From: a virus
DNA length: 50,043 bases
Virus record (IMG/VR): IMGVR_UViG_3300031088_000004
Strand: one strand, 5' to 3'
The notes below the pieces were generated by a model. That model worked only from the letters and a program-made list of their open reading frames with translations. It searched no databases and was not told the DNA's origin. The position numbers and the translations under genes were made by a program. Position 1 is the stretch's first letter. Every line of letters starts with the position of its first letter. Positions 21,278 to 46,359 of the stretch are shown piece after piece.

Positions 21278-22360
21278 TCAGTAGTGAGCATTTTTTTCTT
21301 TGTCTGACGCTTTTGATCCTCCAAGCTCGGCTAACATTTTAGCGAGTTCGTCTTCGTCTGGAATATCAGATTCAAACTCCGCTTTCTTGCCTTCTTCATA
21401 CGAGCGTTGCTTTTCTTTTTCTCCGTCAAGCCATGCTGGCGCCTTCATTCCGTTTCCAGAACCTCGCTTGTTGCCATATCCAGTCCGCGCTGGCTGATCC
21501 ATTTGAATCTTCAGTTGGGAGAATTTCTCTCTGAGCTTCTTCGTCGAGAGGATATTTGATTTCCAGAAGTCCTCGTTGGTTGTCCATTCCATAACAGATT
21601 TGATTTCTTCAGGAGTTCGTTTGTCTTGTTCGATGAGAAGTCGAATATGATCACACCAAACTTGAATGTTAGGCTTTTTGAACTTTGGATCGTTTTTCGT
21701 AATTAGTCCAACAAAGAAGTTTACTAATTTCATTTCAACATCAGAGTCGTCGAAAACGCGCTTGCCGCGTTGGCGACTTTTCTTTTTATCTTTACTATCA
21801 GTTGTAGTCTCAGTAGAAGTCTCAGGTAATGCTTGGTTCACTTTGGACCGCTCGACGGACCATTTTGAACTCTTGGTAAGGTCAAAATGACCCCATGGAA
21901 AGCTCACTCGTTTTTCGTTGGTATCACCCATTAGTTCATTTTGACCCAATGGAGGAACAATTTCTGAACCCTTGTTTTTTCCCATTAGTTCATTTTGACC
22001 CAATGGTTGGTTCACTGTTGGTTCATCCTCTTTTTCAAGCGAAAGCAATTTATCGTAATCAATCGTATACCAAAGCGTTTTATCAATTTTCAAAGTGTTG
22101 TACTTATCCGTTGCGATGAGTAGCTCTTGATCTCGTAAACTTTTCAATGTCCGCTTGAGCGTACTGAGTGACCAGAAAGGAAATTGCTGATTCCATTTAT
22201 CAAGAGTATTGTATGTCCACGTTTGACCGTCCCGAACCTTGTCGCTTCGATCCAACCAATAGTGAACTTGCTGAAGCACGATAGCTTCGTTCAAGCCGAT
22301 AGCGCACGCTAATTTTGGTAAAACCATCAAAGGTTGTTCGTTGATTAGTAATTTACTCAT
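21278..22360 (-). CDS. Replication protein (replisome-organizer / DnaD-like)
   Basis: N-terminus is winged-helix-like (AIVLQQVHYWL...W.YNT...FPFWS..TLKRTL). The C-terminus has FWKSNILSTKKLREKFSQL, as in DnaD/phage replication C-terminal domains. Confidence 0.7.
   Translation of the reverse strand: MSKLLINEQPLMVLPKLACAIGLNEAIVLQQVHYWLDRSDKVRDGQTWTYNTLDKWNQQFPFWSLSTLKRTLKSLRDQELLIATDKYNTLKIDKTLWYTIDYDKLLSLEKEDEPTVNQPLGQNELMGKNKGSEIVPPLGQNELMGDTNEKRVSFPWGHFDLTKSSKWSVERSKVNQALPETSTETTTDSKDKKKSRQRGKRVFDDSDVEMKLVNFFVGLITKNDPKFKKPNIQVWCDHIRLLIEQDKRTPEEIKSVMEWTTNEDFWKSNILSTKKLREKFSQLKIQMDQPARTGYGNKRGSGNGMKAPAWLDGEKEKQRSYEEGKKAEFESDIPDEDELAKMLAELGGSKASDKEKNAHY
21927..22006. repeat. Two exact 26-bp direct repeats (period 54 bp) inside the replication gene
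   Basis: cccattagttcattttgacccaatgg occurs at 21927-21952 and 21981-22006; it encodes PLGQNELMG twice. Confidence 0.9.
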
Positions 22361-22403
22361 ATGTGTGTCCCTCGATTTCCCTCTTACTAGGTTTTCAGAC
22401 CTG

Positions 22404-22437
22404 TAACTTGTAAGTCATACCCCTATAACTTGTAAGT
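22404..22437. repeat. Two 12-bp direct repeats TAACTTGTAAGT (period 22 bp), intergenic
   Basis: 22404-22415 and 22426-22437. Confidence 0.85.
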
Positions 22438-22457: not shown

Positions 22458-23414
22458 TCATTTCTCCAACTCTTCTTCAAAAACCATGTAATGAATCGGA
22501 GCCTCCATTCTCTCCATGACTCCGCGTACTTTCTCTACTCCATAAATTAGAATTGAATCTTTCACTTGATCCAAAATGTAGTCAGAAGCCGTTCCTCTTT
22601 TTGCTCTCCAAAGCTCCAAGAGTTCAAGCACTTCGTCGGTCATCTCAAGTGTTTCATTTTCAATTGTTTGGAGTCTTTTTGTGTTGTGTGATTTTCTTCC
22701 TGGCTTCTTTTTTTCTTCCTCACGATTCGTACCACGATTCGTAGGACGATTCGTTAATGCGTCGGATGAATGTTCCATAGAAGCACTTTCTTCACGATTC
22801 GTATGACGATTCGTACCACGATTCGTTAAATCGCTTTGTATCAACGTTTCTGCATCTTCTTGAAGATTAGATACAGGTTCATCTTCCACTTCTTCACGAT
22901 TCGTACCACGATTCGTAGGACGATTCGTTAATTCTGTGGAGGCGGCGACTTCTTCACGATTCGTACCACGATTCGTAGGACGATTCGTTAATTCGTTTTC
23001 GATAGCGTTTAAGACCATCGTTCGAACCTTTTCAGAAGGAATTTTCCGAGCGACAATTTCCGCGAAATCCAAGCGAATTACTTCTCGTAATTCCTTCTTA
23101 ATCAAGTCCTCGACAGGCTTTCCGCCTTTTTTAAAGTTGAACTTTCCCCAGTTCAGAATGCATATTTCTCGAGAGGAAGCATCGTACTGGATCAACTTAT
23201 ATTCGCTTTCGAATCGCTTCATGAGCGTTTCGATGACTTCCGGAGCGAGTCCGGATTCGTACGACATTTGACGCGGTGACACTTTGTAGACACCAACTTG
23301 TTTCGTGTTAGCGTTCGTCAGCAGATACAAGAAGAACAGTTTATCTTCCGTACCGAACTCAGCGACTTTCTCATCGTTCCAAAACGCTGATTGGATATTA
23401 CGCGATACATTCAT
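22458..23414 (-). CDS. Replication initiator / replisome-organizer-like protein carrying (x-T-N-R) repeats
   Basis: The N-terminus AFWNDEKV...KLFFLYLLTNANTKQVGVY resembles phage replication-organizer N-terminal domains. RBS AGGAGGA. The gene contains the iteron array. Confidence 0.65.
   Translation of the reverse strand: MNVSRNIQSAFWNDEKVAEFGTEDKLFFLYLLTNANTKQVGVYKVSPRQMSYESGLAPEVIETLMKRFESEYKLIQYDASSREICILNWGKFNFKKGGKPVEDLIKKELREVIRLDFAEIVARKIPSEKVRTMVLNAIENELTNRPTNRGTNREEVAASTELTNRPTNRGTNREEVEDEPVSNLQEDAETLIQSDLTNRGTNRHTNREESASMEHSSDALTNRPTNRGTNREEEKKKPGRKSHNTKRLQTIENETLEMTDEVLELLELWRAKRGTASDYILDQVKDSILIYGVEKVRGVMERMEAPIHYMVFEEELEK
22722..22988. repeat. Iteron-like array: 12 identical ACGATTCGT 9-mers in four triplets at 12-bp phase
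   Basis: 9-mer starts: 22722/34/46, 22794/806/818, 22896/908/920 and 22956/968/980. A 47-bp perfect direct repeat links 22888-22934 and 22948-22994. Confidence 0.9.
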
Positions 23415-23884: not shown

Positions 23885-24313
23885 TTAGAACGGTAAATCA
23901 TCGTCATTCAGATCGAGTGAGCTTCCGGATGTAAAGGGATCGTGATTTCCGTACGATCCAGGTGCTTGAGATGGTGAAGTGGATCCACTAGCTCCCTTGC
24001 TCTCGAGGAATCGGACGGAATCTGCTACGACCTCCGCACGATACCGCGTCTGCTGTTCTTTGTCCTTGTAGCTGCTGATTTGAAGGCGTCCTTCAACGCC
24101 AGCAAGTTTCCCCTTGGATAGATACTTAGCGACGTTATCGGCTTGTTTACGCCATACTACGCAGTCGATGAAGTCCGCTTCACGGTTTCCGTCTTGCCCA
24201 GTAAAAGGACGATCACAAGCAAGGGTGAAACGAGCGACAGAGACACCCGTTTGTGTAGATCGAAGCTCAGGGTCCCGCGTCAATCGACCGACAAGAACGA
24301 TTCGGTTAATCAT
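23885..24313 (-). CDS. ssb: Single-stranded DNA-binding protein
   Basis: MINRIVLVGRLTRDPELR... OB fold and an acidic C-terminal tip DDDLPF. Confidence 0.95.
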   Translation of the reverse strand: MINRIVLVGRLTRDPELRSTQTGVSVARFTLACDRPFTGQDGNREADFIDCVVWRKQADNVAKYLSKGKLAGVEGRLQISSYKDKEQQTRYRAEVVADSVRFLESKGASGSTSPSQAPGSYGNHDPFTSGSSLDLNDDDLPF

Positions 24314-25475: not shown

Positions 25476-25498
25476 CCTATGACGAGGTGAAAACAAAA

Positions 25499-27040
25499 AT
25501 GAGTAATAGTAAAACGTCGGTCGCCTTGAACGTGGCGATCTACCTTAGAAAAAGTAGAACAGATATAGAAGAAGAAAGAAAAGCTCGAGAAGCTGGTGAA
25601 ACGTATGACACACTCAGCCGGCACCGGAAACAACTTATGGATATTGCCCGTCGTGAAGGGTACCATGTCGTAGACATCTTTGAAGAAGTCGTGTCTGGTG
25701 AATTCCTCAGTGAACGTGAGCAAGCGACTGAGATGCTTCGTAAGGTCCAGCTAGGCTATTATGACGCGGTACTATGCGTCGACGTTGATCGTCTTAGTCG
25801 TGGTGGAAAACAGGATGAATACCGCATCGAAACAGCGTTTAAACAATCCGGTACCATTTTAATCACAACAGACGAAGTAATCGACTTCAGCGAAGAAAGC
25901 CAAGAGTTAAATAATGACCTTAAACTCATGCTGTCGCGGATTGATCATAAGAAGATCAAGAAACGCCTTCACGCAGGTCGCCTTCGTTCAACCAGTGAAG
26001 GGAAGGAAATGAGCACGAAACCCCCTTACGGTTATCATAAAGACGAAAATTTGAAACTCGTTATATTTGAACCAGAAGCGCGAATCGTCCGGAAAATTTA
26101 TCAATGGAGTCTCGAAGGAGTCGGCCGCGTTAAGATCGCGGAAAGGCTAACCGACATGGGCATCCCTTCACCATCGGGAAAGGGTGAGTGGGGACATGCT
26201 AGTGTGCGCCGAATCCTAAAGAGTCCGAAGTATAAAGGCGCCATGTTCTTCGGTAAAAATCAATCGATAAAATCCGAAGGCAGCGGCTATGTCAAAAAAG
26301 TTCGTCGTGACGAAAAGAAATATGTGTATAAAGAAGATGCGCATGAACCGATTATCTCCCGCGAAGATTGGGAAGCGGTTCAAGAAGGCATGCTAAATCG
26401 TAAAACGAACGTTAATCCAAATAAAACACTAATCAACCCTTTCGCATCCCTTATCAAGTGTAAAAAATGTGGTCATACTTTATTGGCCAACAATCCGAAA
26501 ACAAGACCAAGTATTTATTTATACTGCAGCACAAAAGACTGTGATACGAAAATGATTTCGACAGATAAAGTTGAAGCTGCTGTGCTTGATTATCTAAGAG
26601 ACACACTGGACCAACTGAACGTATCTGAAGATGGTCAAAACTATAATGAGCAATTAGAGAAAGAAACAATTATAGAGATTCAACGAATCGAACAAGAGAT
26701 CGAGGAAGACGCAGAGCGACGCGATAAACTTCACGATCTTATCGAAAACGGCACGTACGATAAAGCGACATTCCTGGATAGAATGCGTGTGATCACAGAA
26801 CGTCGGAAAAATTATGATCAACAATTGCATCGACTTCATAGACGCCTTGAACAGCTGCAAGATCAGACACAAGGTAAGAAAGACTTAAAACCACTTATAG
26901 AGAACGTCCTCGAAAAATATAAGCCAGAATTATCAGCTGGCGAAAAGAACGAACTTTTAAAGAGCGTGATCCATGTTATCCGATACCAGCGCGATCGCGA
27001 CTGGAAACATTTTAAATTAGACATCGAATTAAAATATTGA
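25499..27040 (+). CDS. int: Large serine recombinase (integrase)
   Basis: Has a resolvase catalytic domain (IYLRKSRTD, DRLSRGG), a recombinase domain (PPYGY...GIPSPSGK.EW), a zinc ribbon (CKKCGH...CSTKDC) and a C-terminal coiled coil. The ATG at 25499 lies 9 nt after GAGGTG. Confidence 0.92.
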   Translation: MSNSKTSVALNVAIYLRKSRTDIEEERKAREAGETYDTLSRHRKQLMDIARREGYHVVDIFEEVVSGEFLSEREQATEMLRKVQLGYYDAVLCVDVDRLSRGGKQDEYRIETAFKQSGTILITTDEVIDFSEESQELNNDLKLMLSRIDHKKIKKRLHAGRLRSTSEGKEMSTKPPYGYHKDENLKLVIFEPEARIVRKIYQWSLEGVGRVKIAERLTDMGIPSPSGKGEWGHASVRRILKSPKYKGAMFFGKNQSIKSEGSGYVKKVRRDEKKYVYKEDAHEPIISREDWEAVQEGMLNRKTNVNPNKTLINPFASLIKCKKCGHTLLANNPKTRPSIYLYCSTKDCDTKMISTDKVEAAVLDYLRDTLDQLNVSEDGQNYNEQLEKETIIEIQRIEQEIEEDAERRDKLHDLIENGTYDKATFLDRMRVITERRKNYDQQLHRLHRRLEQLQDQTQGKKDLKPLIENVLEKYKPELSAGEKNELLKSVIHVIRYQRDRDWKHFKLDIELKY

Positions 27041-40718: not shown

Positions 40719-41437
40719 ATGCCATTCGACCCCGCTCCCGGTCGTTGATCGGATATTAATTTAACGCGGAGGAAGACTGACGCCCCTTTGGTTGTTGGTT
40801 CACTGTCTAATCCGTTCAAATAACCGCCATACAAGCCATAGCGTGATTTGAGCACCATATAACTGTCATGGCGTGTATCCATGAACTTATTGAAACCCTC
40901 ATGCGTCAAAAAGCAGAGCGTCATGCCAATTTCACAGCCTGTATTGCCTGTACGTTGCGTTCGGACGGACCCTTCTAGGGTATTTTGCAGTTGGATGCCG
41001 TACAGCGGCTTTGGTGGTGTTAATTGATCGACGGCATAGACATAAGTTGATGGCACATAACGGTGATAGAAGATGCGTCTTACATTCACTTTGTCTGTTG
41101 ACCGAAAATAGTCGTTTGTCGCAATACCGATCTTTCGTTGCCCAGAATCAACTGGTAAGAAGACTCGCGTCCATGTGCGGGATCCGCGAACGATTTTACG
41201 CTGGCGTGTATAGCTTGATTTGGCGTTATGCGTAACGAGAGCAATTTCTGCTCGAGTAATCTCCCCTTGAGACGTGACAGCTGCTTGAACCGCGTAATCC
41301 ATCGCGAGCATACCGACTTCGTCTTCCTGAACATCGACCATAGGTGACAACCATAGTTTTTCTGGTCCAGTCACCACTAGCGAGGGACCGGAAAAAATCT
41401 CGGTCTCCTCTACGTGGCTATAAAGCGTTGGTAACAT
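40715..41437 (-). CDS. Distal tail protein (Dit-like)
   Basis: 240 aa, directly downstream of the tape measure gene. Assigned by synteny and size. Confidence 0.65.
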   Translation of the reverse strand: MLPTLYSHVEETEIFSGPSLVVTGPEKLWLSPMVDVQEDEVGMLAMDYAVQAAVTSQGEITRAEIALVTHNAKSSYTRQRKIVRGSRTWTRVFLPVDSGQRKIGIATNDYFRSTDKVNVRRIFYHRYVPSTYVYAVDQLTPPKPLYGIQLQNTLEGSVRTQRTGNTGCEIGMTLCFLTHEGFNKFMDTRHDSYMVLKSRYGLYGGYLNGLDSEPTTKGASVFLRVKLISDQRPGAGSNGI

Positions 41438-44400
41438 TAGTTTCCTCCTCCCCGTCGATTGACTTCTTTTTGCGTGTTGTCGACGATCGTCCGTTGAACG
41501 TTTCGACCGAGTGCATCGAAATCAGCGTCTCGATCCATTGATTGAACGTTAACCGCAACAGGCATGTTCTTGATCTGGATAAACTGTGGTGATTGTTGCT
41601 GTGTGTTGAGATCAACTTGCGCGGCAGCGGCATTGATTTGAGCGTTGACGTCATATCCCGCACCAATGGAGCTCGCAATCATGCTTGTCGCAAGATCGTT
41701 CACGTTCCCACTGAATTCCGGAATGATGTCGACCTTCGCCCCACGACTGAAATCACCAGTCGCGGCATCGACCATGCCCGCTGTCTCGTCTTGAACACGT
41801 CCGACATTGTCATTGATACCAAGTGCGACCCCTTCAGGAATCCACTTCGCAAGCGCCCGCATGAGACGTGATGGTGAAGCAATGCCCATCGTCTTTTTGA
41901 AGGTACTCATGATGTCTCCGGCAAGGTCCCGAACGACGTCGAGCGCCTTCTTCGCTTTGCCACTCATCCCGCCAATGATTCCACCGATGACGTCCGCGCC
42001 CCAGCTGATAGCCTGACGAGCGAGTCCTGTGAAATAACGCTTAATTTTGCCGAATGTTCCTGAGATCGCGGATGCTGCACGACCAAGGTTTGATTTGATA
42101 TTGTTGTACACCGACCGGAATGCGTCTCTCGCGGTCCGGGCAATGTACGACATTGCCGATGAAAACGCGCGACGAACCCGACCTAGTACCTCAGACACGA
42201 TCCGCCCCACAGCAGACATCGCGTTGGACACCGCTTTTCGGATAGCCGAAAAGGCTGACGACGCTAATCGACGTAGGGTAGACATCGTGTCAGAAAAGAT
42301 TTTTCGAATACGAGAGAGCGCACCAGAGATTACCTTGCGCGTCGCTTCCATCAGATTCGAAGCAGTGCGTCGAATTGCATTAAACCCGGACGAAACGAGA
42401 CGTCGGAGGGTTGCCATGGAGTCCGAGAAAATCTTACGAATCCGGCTTAAAGCACCGGAGATCACCTTCCTCGTTGCCTCCATCAAATTTGTAGCAGTCC
42501 GGCGGATCGCGGAAAACGCTCCGGAAACCACCCGACGTACATTGGACATCGCATTACTGAAATTGCGCCGAATTTGGCTTAATGCGTTCACTATTCCTTT
42601 ACGTGTCCGCTCCATCCAGTTCCCAATAGATCGGTACATGGACGAAAACGCACTCGTTGTCGCCTTCTTCGCTGAACTCCAACCATTCAGGAAGGCGCGT
42701 CCTGCAAGGCGCAAGGCAGACGCAATGATTTTGCCGTAAGACCGAACGACAGTACCAATCGTCTTACCGACAGCTTTTAGTGCACGTGCTGCAAGGATTG
42801 GGAACCCCTTAAATATGCCCGTAAAGGCTTTTTTCAGGAATTCTCCGATCGGTCCTAGTGCTTTGACAAGATTCCCGAGCTGGTACGACCACGTTCGGTT
42901 TAATGAGCGGAGGTTCCGCCCCACCATGCCTTTGAAATCGCCCCACGCGTTGCTAAAACCGCGTTTCAGCTTTGGACCTAAGTTCGAAAACGCTGAGCCG
43001 ATGCCTGATAGTCCGGTTTTAAACCACGAAGCTATCTTACGACCGCCTTTTTTCGCCCCTGAAGCAATTGAATCCCAGTGCTCTACAATGTACTTTCCGA
43101 GCAATCCGAGAGGACCTAAGAGTGTCCCGAACAGCATTGATTTCCAATTTTTCGAGAAGTAATCGCCTATCTTACCGAAAATCTGCTTCGTTTTATCGAC
43201 AATTTCGTCCCAATACTTGTAGATCAAGTAACCGAGACCCGCGACAACCGCTACAATCGCCGCAATACCGAGTACCCATGGATTGGTTAGGAGCGGAAGA
43301 AGCATGGCTCCAAAGCGCCCTAGAACGCCACCGACACCACCGAGAGCACGTCCGATCAACGGACCCATCTTTCCAGCTGCTCCACCGATGCCCCCAAACG
43401 CTTTCTTAAGGAGACCGATCGCTCCGGTTGCCTTCCCTGCGTTGCCAGATAGTAACTTGAACGCGGATGACAGCAACCCAAGACCCGGAATCAGTTTCCC
43501 AAGCGCTCCTGTCATCATGCCGATTCCGACAGCGTACACGATATACTTCCCGGCTCCTGTTTCCATCAAGGAAGCAACAGCTTCGAGTATGACCGCCAAC
43601 GCTTCAAAGACCGGGAGAAGTACGTCCCCGAGAATTTGAGCGAGTTTGTCCATCATTTTTCCGAATCCTTCTGCTCCGGTTTGACCCGGTCCGGCGAAGG
43701 CTTCGATGATCACGTTTCCGATTCGCTTCACAGCGTCCCAGATTCGCGCTAAAACAGGCTCGAATTTGTCCCAGTTCTTATAGATCACCCATGAAAGAGC
43801 GGCAATCGTCGAAAGAATCGGGTTCATTTTCACGAATTGAACGAGGAATCCTCCAACCATGCCGGGTAAACCGCGTAGAGCGGACAAAATACCCGGTCCG
43901 AGCATCCGAAACATACGCGGAAGACCAGCAACCGCGTTTCGCGTCAAGATAAGGTTGTCGTACAGCATGCGCGCCTGTGGCGACATGACGACCATTCCTT
44001 TACCCGCGAAGCCTAGCGCTTGTCCTAGTGCTTGGAATAACCCCCTGTTCATCAGGAGGAATCCCGCAATAGGCGCCAGTACCCCAATGAGCACAAGTCC
44101 GGCTCCTCCGATCGCAATCATATGAGCGAGGAACGTTGCCATGCCTGGATTGTTGCGTAAGAACTCTGTCGCGGTGTCTGCCGCTGCGGATAAAGCGTCA
44201 GCAAGTTTGATGACGGTCGGCTCTAACGCTTTCCAAAGCTCGAGGAGGGATGTACCGAGCTTCCGGAAAGCCTTCTCGGACTTTGCTACTCCGTTATCAT
44301 CAAGACCGCTCACCATCTTCTCGTATGCGGTCATACCGTCTACCATTGTCTTGCCGTTTTTACGCCATGCGTCCTCGTTCTTATAGACATCTTTCGTGGC

Positions 44401-46359
44401 CGCTTGCAGGTCGCCTTGGTGTTTCTTCATGGCGAGTGCTAGGATGTCTGTCGCTTCTTTCTGCGTGACGCCTAAGTCCTTCGAAATCTTGTCGACTGCG
44501 GAAATCGCTTCAACAGCGTCAGTTCCCCACGCCTTTTTGAATTGAAGACCCCATTCAGCGGATTCCTTAATGTTCTCCTTAGTACGTCCCATCTGGTTAT
44601 GCAGGACGGAGAACAGCTCCCCGACTTCTTCAATCGACGTCCCTGTATCAGCGGACGTGTCCGCAATCAGGTTCTTGAAGTCTTTCATGTCCTCTGCTGC
44701 AGTAAGCGTCTGAGCTTCGAACTTGCCCCATCCTTTTTGTGCGGCATTGGCGACCGCTCCAAAGGCGACGGCAAGCGCTGCGACCGCTGGTGTGACAAAT
44801 TGGTTCAGCTGCATGCCGAACATTTGGTACTTCATCGCCAGCGCATTGATCTTCATCTTTTCTTCCGCTTTTGTCGTCTGCTTCCCGACAATTGCTTTAG
44901 CTGCGTTGTCTAGCGCTTCGTATGTCTTGTTCTGAAGGTAGGCAAGATCGCGGTTCGTGAACTGTTTGATTCGCCCTGCTAAGGCGTCCATAGCGTTATC
45001 GAACGGTTTATAGATGACGTCCTTACCAAAGAGCTTCCCTGCCTTGTAGCCATTCGCTTTCGCGATCACATCAACCGGGTTTGATTTCGCAAGTTCGGTC
45101 TTGTATCGCTTCAAGGCACGTTCGGCTTCTGCCATTTCCTCAACAAACTCATGCGAGTTCGCGGAGTTCTTCATTTCCTTCAATGCTTTTTCAGTCAGCT
45201 TGATTTGATCGCGGAGATTATCGAGACGAATATTCGCCATCGTATGCATCTGACCCTCAATGGCTTTGATTTCGGTCTTCGTGCGCCCGAATCCAAGTTG
45301 TGAGAGTTGTTTCCGCGCTGCCATGGCTCCCCGTTCGATTGCGCTGAACGTTGCCTGAAGCATGAGCATGTTCTTCGAGTCCGGGAAGTATTTGAACATC
45401 TCACTTCCCATGTCCAGTTGAATCGTTGCTCGTTTCAGCGCCGTTTGTGGCGTCAACTGCATAGCATAGCGGAGCATCCGTTGGTGATACGCCTGTAAAG
45501 CGCGGTTCGCACGATCAAGGTCGTACGTGAAGCGGTTTGTGTTTCGTGCTGCATACGCTCCGGATGCTCCGAGAGCGGTCATGGCTGCTGTTGTACCTAA
45601 GTAAGCGTTCGGATCATCAGCTGGCATCTGTCCGTATGGTTGATTCGGATATGATCCATCTGGTGGTCCGTTAGATTGAGGACCACCGCTTGGCGTTGTC
45701 TGCGGTCCCATGACTCCGGGATCGCCGGCTGTGTCATAAGTGGTCCGGACGATGCGGTTCACGTTTTCTGTAATGAATTGCTCGAGACGAATTACACGAT
45801 TCCGTAAACGATTCAGTGCATCGTCGAGCTTGGTCGCCATTCGTAATAGGTCGCCCATTACCGTACCAGCTTTACTTCCATCGACATCAACCCGGTATTG
45901 TTGCGCTGTGAGCGTGTCAGAAAGCGTCTGAGCGCGTTTCTGCATTTCCTCGAGTGTTTTCCGCGCCTTTTCTCCATCGAGGTCTATGGTGCCTTCTGGA
46001 CCGATAAACGAACGTTCGAGTTCTTCCGCTTGGTCGCGGAGGACCGTGAGTTCCTTTACAGCGGGATCCGTATCAAAATCAATCGATCCATTCGCTTTTA
46101 GATCGTCAAGCATGGCATTAAAGCTGTCCTTCACGCTTCGAATGTCTTCAAGCGCTTCTTTACTGTTGATTTCGATGTCCGGAGAAGCGGATAGACGGGA
46201 AATCGTTTCAAATGCTTTTTGAAAACGTTGTTCGAGTTTACTTGCTGTTTCTGCTCCGCGATTCTCGAGCTCGAACATGCCTTTGATTGCCTTCCCAAAG
46301 TCGACCGCGATTGTCCCTACCATCTCGAACATTTCTAAAATGTCGTTATTAGCTGCCAC
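41437..46359 (-). CDS. Tape measure protein (1640 aa)
   Basis: Supported by its length, coiled-coil N-terminus, central TM/Gly-rich block, helical repeat region, and position after the G/GT genes. GTG start after GGGGGTGA. Confidence 0.9.
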   Translation of the reverse strand: MAANNDILEMFEMVGTIAVDFGKAIKGMFELENRGAETASKLEQRFQKAFETISRLSASPDIEINSKEALEDIRSVKDSFNAMLDDLKANGSIDFDTDPAVKELTVLRDQAEELERSFIGPEGTIDLDGEKARKTLEEMQKRAQTLSDTLTAQQYRVDVDGSKAGTVMGDLLRMATKLDDALNRLRNRVIRLEQFITENVNRIVRTTYDTAGDPGVMGPQTTPSGGPQSNGPPDGSYPNQPYGQMPADDPNAYLGTTAAMTALGASGAYAARNTNRFTYDLDRANRALQAYHQRMLRYAMQLTPQTALKRATIQLDMGSEMFKYFPDSKNMLMLQATFSAIERGAMAARKQLSQLGFGRTKTEIKAIEGQMHTMANIRLDNLRDQIKLTEKALKEMKNSANSHEFVEEMAEAERALKRYKTELAKSNPVDVIAKANGYKAGKLFGKDVIYKPFDNAMDALAGRIKQFTNRDLAYLQNKTYEALDNAAKAIVGKQTTKAEEKMKINALAMKYQMFGMQLNQFVTPAVAALAVAFGAVANAAQKGWGKFEAQTLTAAEDMKDFKNLIADTSADTGTSIEEVGELFSVLHNQMGRTKENIKESAEWGLQFKKAWGTDAVEAISAVDKISKDLGVTQKEATDILALAMKKHQGDLQAATKDVYKNEDAWRKNGKTMVDGMTAYEKMVSGLDDNGVAKSEKAFRKLGTSLLELWKALEPTVIKLADALSAAADTATEFLRNNPGMATFLAHMIAIGGAGLVLIGVLAPIAGFLLMNRGLFQALGQALGFAGKGMVVMSPQARMLYDNLILTRNAVAGLPRMFRMLGPGILSALRGLPGMVGGFLVQFVKMNPILSTIAALSWVIYKNWDKFEPVLARIWDAVKRIGNVIIEAFAGPGQTGAEGFGKMMDKLAQILGDVLLPVFEALAVILEAVASLMETGAGKYIVYAVGIGMMTGALGKLIPGLGLLSSAFKLLSGNAGKATGAIGLLKKAFGGIGGAAGKMGPLIGRALGGVGGVLGRFGAMLLPLLTNPWVLGIAAIVAVVAGLGYLIYKYWDEIVDKTKQIFGKIGDYFSKNWKSMLFGTLLGPLGLLGKYIVEHWDSIASGAKKGGRKIASWFKTGLSGIGSAFSNLGPKLKRGFSNAWGDFKGMVGRNLRSLNRTWSYQLGNLVKALGPIGEFLKKAFTGIFKGFPILAARALKAVGKTIGTVVRSYGKIIASALRLAGRAFLNGWSSAKKATTSAFSSMYRSIGNWMERTRKGIVNALSQIRRNFSNAMSNVRRVVSGAFSAIRRTATNLMEATRKVISGALSRIRKIFSDSMATLRRLVSSGFNAIRRTASNLMEATRKVISGALSRIRKIFSDTMSTLRRLASSAFSAIRKAVSNAMSAVGRIVSEVLGRVRRAFSSAMSYIARTARDAFRSVYNNIKSNLGRAASAISGTFGKIKRYFTGLARQAISWGADVIGGIIGGMSGKAKKALDVVRDLAGDIMSTFKKTMGIASPSRLMRALAKWIPEGVALGINDNVGRVQDETAGMVDAATGDFSRGAKVDIIPEFSGNVNDLATSMIASSIGAGYDVNAQINAAAAQVDLNTQQQSPQFIQIKNMPVAVNVQSMDRDADFDALGRNVQRTIVDNTQKEVNRRGGGN

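Follow-up and report, generated by a model that had tools for sequence, protein, structure and literature searches.

A 50,043-bp stretch of viral DNA (IMG/VR virus record IMGVR_UViG_3300031088_000004; the whole of this stretch is termed the window) contains an open reading frame (ORF; 22458-23414) for a 318-aa putative replisome organizer, and the coding sequence of this protein carries several direct repeats of a short site, ACGATTCGT, hereafter termed the box. The question raised by this locus is whether the repeated boxes are maintained as DNA or as the codons of a repetitive peptide and, if the former, whether they are the sites at which replication of the phage begins. An earlier note, made from the sequence alone, had favored an origin embedded in the initiator gene, and this interpretation was supported as far as sequence analysis goes: the 12 boxes are probably iterons for the N-terminal domain (N-domain) of the organizer itself and, together with an adjacent A-rich tract, would form an in-gene origin of theta replication. 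The layout of such origins is already known from SPP1, lambda and pSK41. What appears to be added here is a box newly recognized for the widespread family to which this organizer belongs and, in the window, an array that is unusually expanded and has a second one next to it.

Results

Box array in the organizer gene

Counting of both strands detected exactly 12 copies of ACGATTCGT in the window, all on the plus strand and all packed within 267 bp (22722-22988) as four triplets at 12-bp phase, with each copy at the position given in the earlier note (Table 1). The chance level was estimated from 100 dinucleotide-preserving shuffles of the window, which contained a mean of 1.15 copies (standard deviation, 1.19; maximum, 6) and in no case reached 12 (0/100). 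The previous expectation of well under one copy per 50 kb was, therefore, slightly optimistic, while the enrichment itself is beyond doubt. No second cluster was detected anywhere in the window when one mismatch was allowed, the remaining copies being scattered singletons. Triplets 3 and 4 are held in a 47-bp perfect direct repeat (22888-22934 and 22948-22994), again as described before, and the matches of triplets 1 and 2 to this unit are 94% and 85%. Every box reads ACG-AAT-CGT on the coding strand and encodes Thr-Asn-Arg, such that the peptide L-TNR-x-TNR-x-TNR-EE occurs four times; the coding sense of triplet 1, for example, is TTA-ACGAATCGT-CCT-ACGAATCGT-GGT-ACGAATCGT-GAG.

Constraint on the DNA of the boxes

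Codon usage in the repeats was compared between the window and four close homologues (93, 83, 82 and 60% protein identity) from lineages L001, L002, L005 and L006. The x-T-N-R repeats were kept in all four homologues, with box counts of 14, 11, 9 and 9 relative to the 12 of the window. All of the TNR units in these five lineages (55/55) read ACG-AAT-CGT, the one degenerate copy being GCG-AAT-CGT, and both of the complete boxes present in a sixth, partial lineage (L134) matched the same sequence. The earlier note had held that freely varying codons would speak for selection on the protein; the opposite was found. No synonymous differences were observed at TNR codons in comparisons of the window with L002 (0/35) or L005 (0/27), whereas the proportions of same-amino-acid codons that differed in the N-domain were 40% (48/121) and 44% (49/112). 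Naive probabilities for a complete absence of change at the TNR codons are ~0.6^35 = 2e-8 for L002 and 0.56^27 = 2e-7 for L005. Codon bias does not explain the invariance, as outside the repeats the organizer gene uses CGT for 2 of 14 Arg and AAT for 4 of 12 Asn residues and prefers AGA or CGA and AAC.

The codon between adjacent boxes was CCT, GGT, CAT, TAT or TGT, encoding P, G, H, Y or C, with the third base always being T; conservation thus extends over a 10-mer, T-ACGAATCGT, after which two bases are free to vary. The linker between the triplets was strongly diverged, with 34 amino-acid differences and 21 conserved degenerate codons in the comparison with L002. This combination of invariant 10-mers, free spacers and diverged surroundings has the look of a protein-binding DNA site. 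On the evidence of these alignments the boxes are constrained as DNA and not as peptide, and the (x-T-N-R)n peptide would be a by-product of the sequence of the site. An internal contrast, to which the earlier note had also pointed, is provided by the tape measure gene (41437-46359, minus strand). A tandem 44-aa duplication in this gene (42232-42495) has 36 of 44 residues identical, but the two units differ at 22 of 34 same-amino-acid codons and have 66% nucleotide identity, a pattern that marks it as an old, protein-level repeat.

One spacer of the array behaved differently from the others. The segment at 22832-22860 (coding ...ACGTTGATACAAAGCGATTTA), which lies ahead of the triplet transcribed third (boxes 22794-22826), was nearly invariant over ~20 nt (T-L-I-Q-S-D-L) in the five lineages, whereas the other spacers diverge. 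In L006 (4750-5645), which has 9 boxes and lacks one triplet, the organizer was called as two overlapping ORFs of 103 aa and 214 aa; this split may be due to a frameshift or an assembly error in the N-domain.

The box across the organizer family

The box was not peculiar to the window phage, and its occurrence throughout the organizer family had been absent from the earlier note. Distant homologues (28-30% overall identity) contained a related box, ACGATACGT, right after the N-domain and with a spacing of 11-12 bp. These boxes were followed directly by (GAAAAA)n in Geobacillus PK3.6, deep-sea phage D6E and Bacillus phages Gamma and MY192, with three CGATACGT boxes preceding the (GAAAAA)n of phage Gamma or Wbeta, while in Clostridioides difficile phage CD1801 they were followed by an A-rich AAT/AAG-type repeat instead. 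Owing to the 11-bp spacings of PK3.6, its gene reads one and the same box first as N-D-T or H-D-T and later as T-I-R.

A blind scan for two phased boxes (19 specified bases) was performed on 596 Gb of DNA from public collections, for which ~4 chance matches were expected. Thirty-nine loci were detected, and 29 of these encoded a homologue of the N-domain, including all of the viral contigs (21/21). The ten loci without a homologue were mostly unrelated bacterial contigs, a number of the same order as that expected by chance. Boxes in the 29 homologues were located at nt 180-630 of the gene, mostly at 400-630, in either orientation and in frame 0 (T-N-R), frame 1 (Y-E-S or H-D-S) or frame 2 (R-I-V or P-R-F-V). 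Frames or orientations were mixed within one gene in an Exiguobacterium aestuarii prophage (YES...TNR) and in L020 (ERIV-HDS-TNR). The hosts spanned Bacillales, Lactobacillales and Clostridia. Among the bacterial matches, an uncultured Rickettsiales metagenome-assembled genome (L049, 2073-2105) carried a phased group of three ACGATTCGT boxes, and its contig had no detectable N-domain homologue; a two-box match (L038, 175-195) was located at the extreme end of an Oscillospiraceae contig of 2.4 kb. Both may be due to chance, a truncated gene or a more divergent initiator.

An unbiased survey was then based on 75 distinct homologues picked by protein similarity only, with the box defined as ACGA-NN-CGT at nt 380-640. 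At least one box was present in 73 of these genes, at least two in 67 and at least three in 37. The density of boxes was 3.14/kb in the genes compared to 0.155/kb in the 3-kb flanks and a random expectation of 0.122/kb. Spacings were of 12 bp (n = 104) or 11 bp (n = 26), more than one frame was used in 29 genes, and ACGATACGT was the dominant sequence (146/222 boxes). An A-rich tract (>=90% purine and >=60% A, <=90 nt past the last box) was detected in 62 of the 75 relatives. Arrays typically had 2-5 boxes with a maximum of 11, and the group containing the window, with 9-14 boxes divided among three to four separate clusters, lies at the upper end. The presence of the same or a related box at the same gene position in distant homologues, in other frames and in the other orientation, further indicates that the constraint is on the DNA.

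The family comprises at least 572 relatives in viral contigs, includes the Bacillus anthracis phages Gamma, Cherry, Wbeta and Fah and phages of Geobacillus and Clostridioides difficile, and has no Pfam model and no solved structure. Covariation between box type and the recognition helix was considered, and discriminating positions (e.g., 20, 46, 58, 71, 72, 90 and 94) were noted; these were discarded as evidence due to confounding by phylogeny and by box-based sampling and to the mixing of box types in the close relatives L065 and L069. Among the literature matches listed for the literal box sequences there were only unrelated primers and oligonucleotides. Searches for replisome-organizer origins found the SPP1 papers, but no report of a box for this organizer family was found in the searchable literature.

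A-rich tract

The tract directly past the last box (Table 1) encodes EEEKKKPGRKSHNTKR... and corresponds to the (GAAAAA)n or EK-repeat tract of the relatives. It has a GC content of 0.34 and an AT skew of -0.70. Purines make up 82% of the 40 nt past the last box and A alone 60%, and only 0.11% of the 40-mers of the window are so strand biased; for duplex stability, the segment 22641-22680 was at the 96th percentile. These properties make the tract a candidate DNA unwinding element.

Organizer protein

The 318-aa protein matched PHROG 6251, "replisome organizer DnaA-like" (E, 1.9e-53; residues 1-266), and phrog_1701, "DnaD-like helicase loader" (E, 1.2e-36). No Pfam family was matched by the whole protein, nor by the N-domain at E <= 1, and a search of NCBIfam yielded nothing beyond spurious MutL and DnaG matches, far below threshold, that arose from the low-complexity linker. 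Similarly, a sequence-profile search of the PDB detected no chain at E <= 1. The AlphaFold model, derived with an alignment of 39 sequences, was confident for aa 10-145, contained a small helical C-terminal domain and had pLDDT values of <50 for aa 147-256, which is exactly the part of the protein that holds the boxes. The repeats of this model thus lie in a disordered linker between an N-terminal winged-helix domain and a helical C-terminal domain. Modeled alone, the N-domain had a pLDDT of 91 and a pTM of 0.85, and the order of its elements, helix-strand-helix-helix-strand-strand, is a winged-helix topology. In Foldseek searches, the signal from the full-length model was diluted by the disordered linker; for the N-domain alone, the best matches in the PDB were 4pql_B and 4pt7_B (E, 0.049-0.059; TM, 0.36-0.40; root mean square deviation, ~12 A), and other matches were to winged-helix DNA binders of the MarR, DtxR and IclR types. 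Such matches of a predicted model would support the fold class only.

Replication module and the neighboring O-like gene

The organizer gene and its neighbors (Table 1) make up the early replication module of a phage that is a temperate siphovirus of Firmicutes. A protein identical to the organizer is on record in contigs of up to 50,057 bp, such that the window probably covers nearly all of its contig. A megablast search with this module against GenBank phages produced no match. In relatives, the gene downstream of the organizer encodes a DnaB-type helicase, a DnaC-like loader, YopX or an O-like protein, and the C-terminal domain of the organizer is DnaB_2, Phg_2220_C or none; DnaB_2 (PF07261) was not detected in the window protein but is present in the C-terminal part of some homologues (e.g., PK3.6 and P0007).

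Table 1. Positions of features of the replication module in the window
Feature	Position	Strand	Basis or remarks
Replisome-organizer/initiator gene, 318 aa	22458..23414	(-)	ORF; PHROG match
N-terminal winged-helix domain, aa 1-146	22977-23414	(-)	AlphaFold
Disordered box-holding linker, aa 147-256	22647-22976	(-)	AlphaFold
Small helical C-terminal domain, aa 257-318	22461-22646	(-)	AlphaFold
Box triplet 1	22722..22754	(-)	Boxes 22722, 22734, 22746; closest to gene 3' end
Box triplet 2	22794..22826	(-)	Boxes 22794, 22806, 22818; spacers GGT, CAT
Box triplet 3	22896..22928	(-)	Boxes 22896, 22908, 22920; within 47-bp repeat copy 22888-22934
Box triplet 4	22956..22988	(-)	Boxes 22956, 22968, 22980; within 47-bp repeat copy 22948-22994; closest to N-domain coding region
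A-rich, purine-rich tract (T-rich on plus strand)	22640..22721	(-)	Directly past last box in transcription direction
Second initiator-type (O-like) gene, 360 aa	21278..22360	(-)	"DnaD-like helicase loader" and "replication initiation O-like" PHROGs
Helix-turn-helix (HTH) protein, 62 aa	23462-23650	Same orientation as organizer	Upstream; DNA-binding type
Phage single-strand DNA-binding protein (SSB)	23885..24313	(-)	Pfam SSB, E 7.8e-36; upstream, same transcription unit
Divergent serine recombinase	25487-27040	Divergent	ORF

The 360-aa O-like protein is likely to be a partner in replisome assembly. A perfect 27-bp repeat is present within its gene (21926-21952 and 21980-22006, 54 bp apart), with the coding sense containing CCATTGGGTCAAAATGAACTAATGG(G) twice and the peptide P-L-G-Q-N-E-L-M-G being encoded twice. 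Relatives of this gene have a third copy of the repeat at the same spacing, and in more distant members this position holds between two and five copies of FSQNDQ or FGQNDQ. A CAAAATG core was present in every listed copy of the repeat from seven lineages, in a gene where 37-39% of same-amino-acid codons differ, and the codons flanking the core change amino acid (PLG, PSG, PLA or PLV). From this pattern of conservation, the repeats are probably a second in-gene iteron set.

Several other features of the O-like gene and its surroundings were observed. In L002 (6062-7510) and L005 (1268-2716), the O-like gene encodes 482 aa rather than 360 aa due to tandem duplication of an ~120-aa N-terminal domain (MSKLLIDDQPL... 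twice). A GIY-YIG protein and an 82-aa HTH_36 protein precede the O-like gene in loci L133, L135 and L136, and no ACGAATCGT box was present anywhere in these three loci. The intergenic region between the two replication genes of the window contains two copies of CCTrTAACTTGTAAGT, 22 bp apart (22400-22437), each with a palindrome, ACTTnnAAGT; at the same site in L005 (60% identity), the sequence has changed and the palindromes have been kept (ACTTAGAAGT and GACTTCCAAGTC). This region could be an operator for a dimeric protein or could form an RNA hairpin. Full-length homologues of the O-like protein with ~40% identity are annotated in Lysinibacillus and Ureibacillus genomes, which, together with organizer relatives in Bacillus, Geobacillus and Exiguobacterium, suggests a Bacillales host.

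Discussion

Proposed mechanism and opposing observations

Binding of the boxes by the organizer is proposed because the N-domain and the boxes co-occur throughout the family. Transcription of the early operon would produce the SSB, the small HTH protein, the organizer and the O-like/DnaD-like protein. Organizer N-domains would then bind cooperatively to the near-palindromic ACG-N3-CGT boxes, the 12-bp phase allowing three protomers to be stacked on each triplet, and the four triplets could be joined in a higher-order nucleoprotein complex that bends the DNA. The resulting strain may open the adjacent A-rich tract, with the open strands being stabilized by the SSB, and the C-terminal domain of the organizer, acting with the DnaD/O-like neighbor, would recruit the helicase-loading and priming machinery of the host.

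Several observations weigh against this interpretation. The O-like gene, whose repeats were absent from the earlier note, is a competing origin candidate; as these repeats are themselves conserved as DNA, the firing origin is possibly located there. Loci L133, L135 and L136 contain an O-like gene (~50% identity) and no organizer gene in the sequenced flanks. The A-rich tract of the window is weaker than that of most relatives (82% versus >=90% purine), and a segment ~100 bp further on (22542-22581) is a less stable duplex than this tract. GC skew exhibited a near-steady fall over the window, because nearly all of the genes are on one strand, and gave no origin signal, being uninformative. No significant fold match to the PDB was detected for the N-domain alone (best E, 0.049; TM, ~0.4). 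Finally, although box type followed the N-domain clade in 27 of 28 nearest neighbors, this correspondence is confounded by phylogeny and by sampling.

Alternative explanations

The alternative that survives best, although we consider it unlikely, is that the boxes are genuine organizer sites but not the start of replication. The firing origin would be in the O-like repeats or elsewhere, and the array would be an accessory platform for autoregulation, titration or handcuffing, staging of the helicase loader or a fork barrier like oriR of SPP1. The matches of the O-like gene (21278-22360) to "replication initiation O-like" PHROGs, the maintenance of the CAAAATG core of its 27-bp repeat in seven lineages despite 37-39% synonymous drift, the O-like loci lacking an organizer gene and the weakness of the A-rich tract are all consistent with such a role. 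In addition, a report on SPP1 describes binding of G38P to a second site, oriR, with a proposed function in fork stalling (PMC3485210). However, most of the relatives have a helicase or a DnaC-like loader after the organizer in place of the O-like gene, and these keep both the boxes and the A-rich tract, indicating that the array alone has the full origin signature where it is the only candidate. Twelve sites would also be excessive for a simple operator within a coding region.

Recognition of the boxes by a protein other than the organizer is distinctly improbable. The possible binders are the 360-aa O-like protein, the 62-aa HTH protein and a host factor, and both the presence of two further proteins of DNA-binding type next door and the lack of significance of the N-domain fold matches leave room for one of these. 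The N-domain is, however, the only constant partner of the boxes in the family, as the downstream genes and the C-terminal domains vary, and it was encoded by every viral contig that had been found by means of the boxes alone (21/21). A single host factor is also difficult to reconcile with hosts that span Bacillales, Lactobacillales and Clostridia.

Selection of the repeat as protein, as an (x-T-N-R)n linker whose codon identity is due to recent duplication, slippage or gene conversion, has very little left in its favor. Copy number does vary by lineage (9, 9, 11, 12 and 14), and two triplets are within a perfect 47-bp duplication, indicating that the array expands and contracts by recombination. 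Homogenization within one genome, whether by gene conversion or otherwise, cannot yield identity between genomes that have drifted at 40-44% of synonymous positions, and two bases of each spacer escape this homogenization and change the amino acid. Concerted evolution was ruled out by the variation of the spacers among lineages in which the boxes stay the same, and the divergence of the inter-triplet DNA argues against recent recombinants that share just the array segment. Moreover, the linker is predicted to be disordered, and relatives translate the same box as Y-E-S, H-D-S, R-I-V or T-I-R. An equally slight chance attaches to a constraint on the mRNA, in which pairing of the near-palindromic boxes would control translation or stability: the 301-nt RNA does fold at -90.7 kcal/mol (shuffles, -69.1 +/- 4.9; z = -4.4), but any set of repeated near-palindromes is bound to fold strongly, the boxes vary in orientation and range in number from 1 to 14, no compensatory changes that keep RNA pairing but break the DNA box were present in the five lineages, and the reading was ruled out by the dominant box of the family, ACGATACGT, which is not self-complementary and whose same-sense copies cannot pair.

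Two arrays and significance

The preferred interpretation, an in-gene origin formed by the organizer boxes and the A-rich tract, concerns one of two arrays in the window, which has 12 ACGAATCGT boxes in the organizer gene and two to three CCAnnnGnTCAAAATGA boxes with a 54-bp spacing in the O-like gene. A broader proposal is put forward tentatively from these sequences. Two adjacent initiator-type genes, each with an array of sites in its own linker, might form one composite origin of ~1.1 kb that is used by two initiators, or might be two origins for different stages, such as theta replication early on and another mode later or as an alternative. Independently of this, the N-domain and the ACG-N3-CGT box might define a large initiator family for which the origin could be read from the gene sequence in hundreds of Firmicute phages, the Bacillus anthracis typing phages among them.

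If confirmed, the association of box and N-domain would provide a sequence-readable origin for a large organizer family of Firmicute phages. It would also be a case of overlapping codes, in which a DNA-binding site dictates the peptide and one site is read in three frames among relatives. Origins of this type could be cloned as anti-phage decoys, as in the lactococcal "Per" approach, and could be a basis for phage-derived replicons or predictors of incompatibility and specificity groups. The window phage, whose array is among the largest (12-14 boxes, four triplets) and has another alongside, would be a good system for relating the number and spacing of sites to origin strength.

Comparison with known systems

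In lambda, four iterons followed by an A+T-rich, strand-asymmetric tract are present in the part of gene O that codes for the linker joining the DNA-binding N-terminal domain to the C-terminal domain that binds P. Each of these iterons is ~19 bp and is bound by an O dimer, whereas the window boxes are 9-10 bp at a 12-bp phase. Iteron sequence and O specificity co-vary among the lambdoid phages. The organizer matched no O-like PHROG, in contrast to the neighboring 360-aa gene. Repeats in the organizer gene are also found in the lactococcal phages TP901-1 (orf13) and Tuc2009 (rep2009), where they are reported to be needed for replication and to have been used as phage-encoded resistance (Per) decoys. 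Neither of these phages was among the tblastn matches listed (40 of 61 records).

SPP1 has a repeat array within the gene of its own initiator, in a module of a Firmicute siphovirus with an SSB gene upstream, as in the window. The oriL region in gene 38, cited as a precedent in the earlier note, is well documented: it consists of iterons (AB boxes) bound by G38P and an A+T-rich unwinding element, and 356 bp of this region drive theta replication in vitro (PMC5737612, PMC6316719). In the placing of its boxes inside the organizer gene, the window matches this arrangement. The two systems differ in the sequence of the box, in the gene that follows the organizer (O-like/DnaD-like in the window and G39P/G40P in SPP1) and in the N-domains, which are not detectably related (BLASTP E of 39 for G38P versus the window protein); furthermore, the window has its 12 boxes in four triplets and no second ACGATTCGT cluster comparable to oriR. 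The phage Gamma homologue has an N-domain and boxes of the window type joined to the C-terminal domain of G38P, Phg_2220_C, a Pfam domain that was detected in G38P and this homologue only and not in the window protein. The sharing of this domain indicates that the SPP1 and window systems are modular counterparts.

A further comparison is with the RepA_N initiators of plasmids. The window protein had no sequence match to RepA_N (Pfam PF06970), and membership of this family thus fails at the sequence level. The top two fold matches of the N-domain, 4pql and 4pt7, are RepA_N N-terminal domains, but these matches were not significant (E, ~0.05; TM, ~0.4); 4PT7 is the structure of a staphylococcal RepA_N initiator (PMC7145576). 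The Rep protein of pSK41 has 319 aa, and its winged-helix N-terminal domain (~120 aa) binds four Rep boxes located centrally in rep; the ori DNA encodes a linker that is not required at the protein level, and a host-specific C-terminal domain binds the DnaG of the host (PMC5703833). While pSK41 is a plasmid rather than a phage and has four boxes rather than 12, its Rep protein is of nearly the same size as the window organizer (319 versus 318 aa) and has nearly the same layout, making it the closest architectural parallel.

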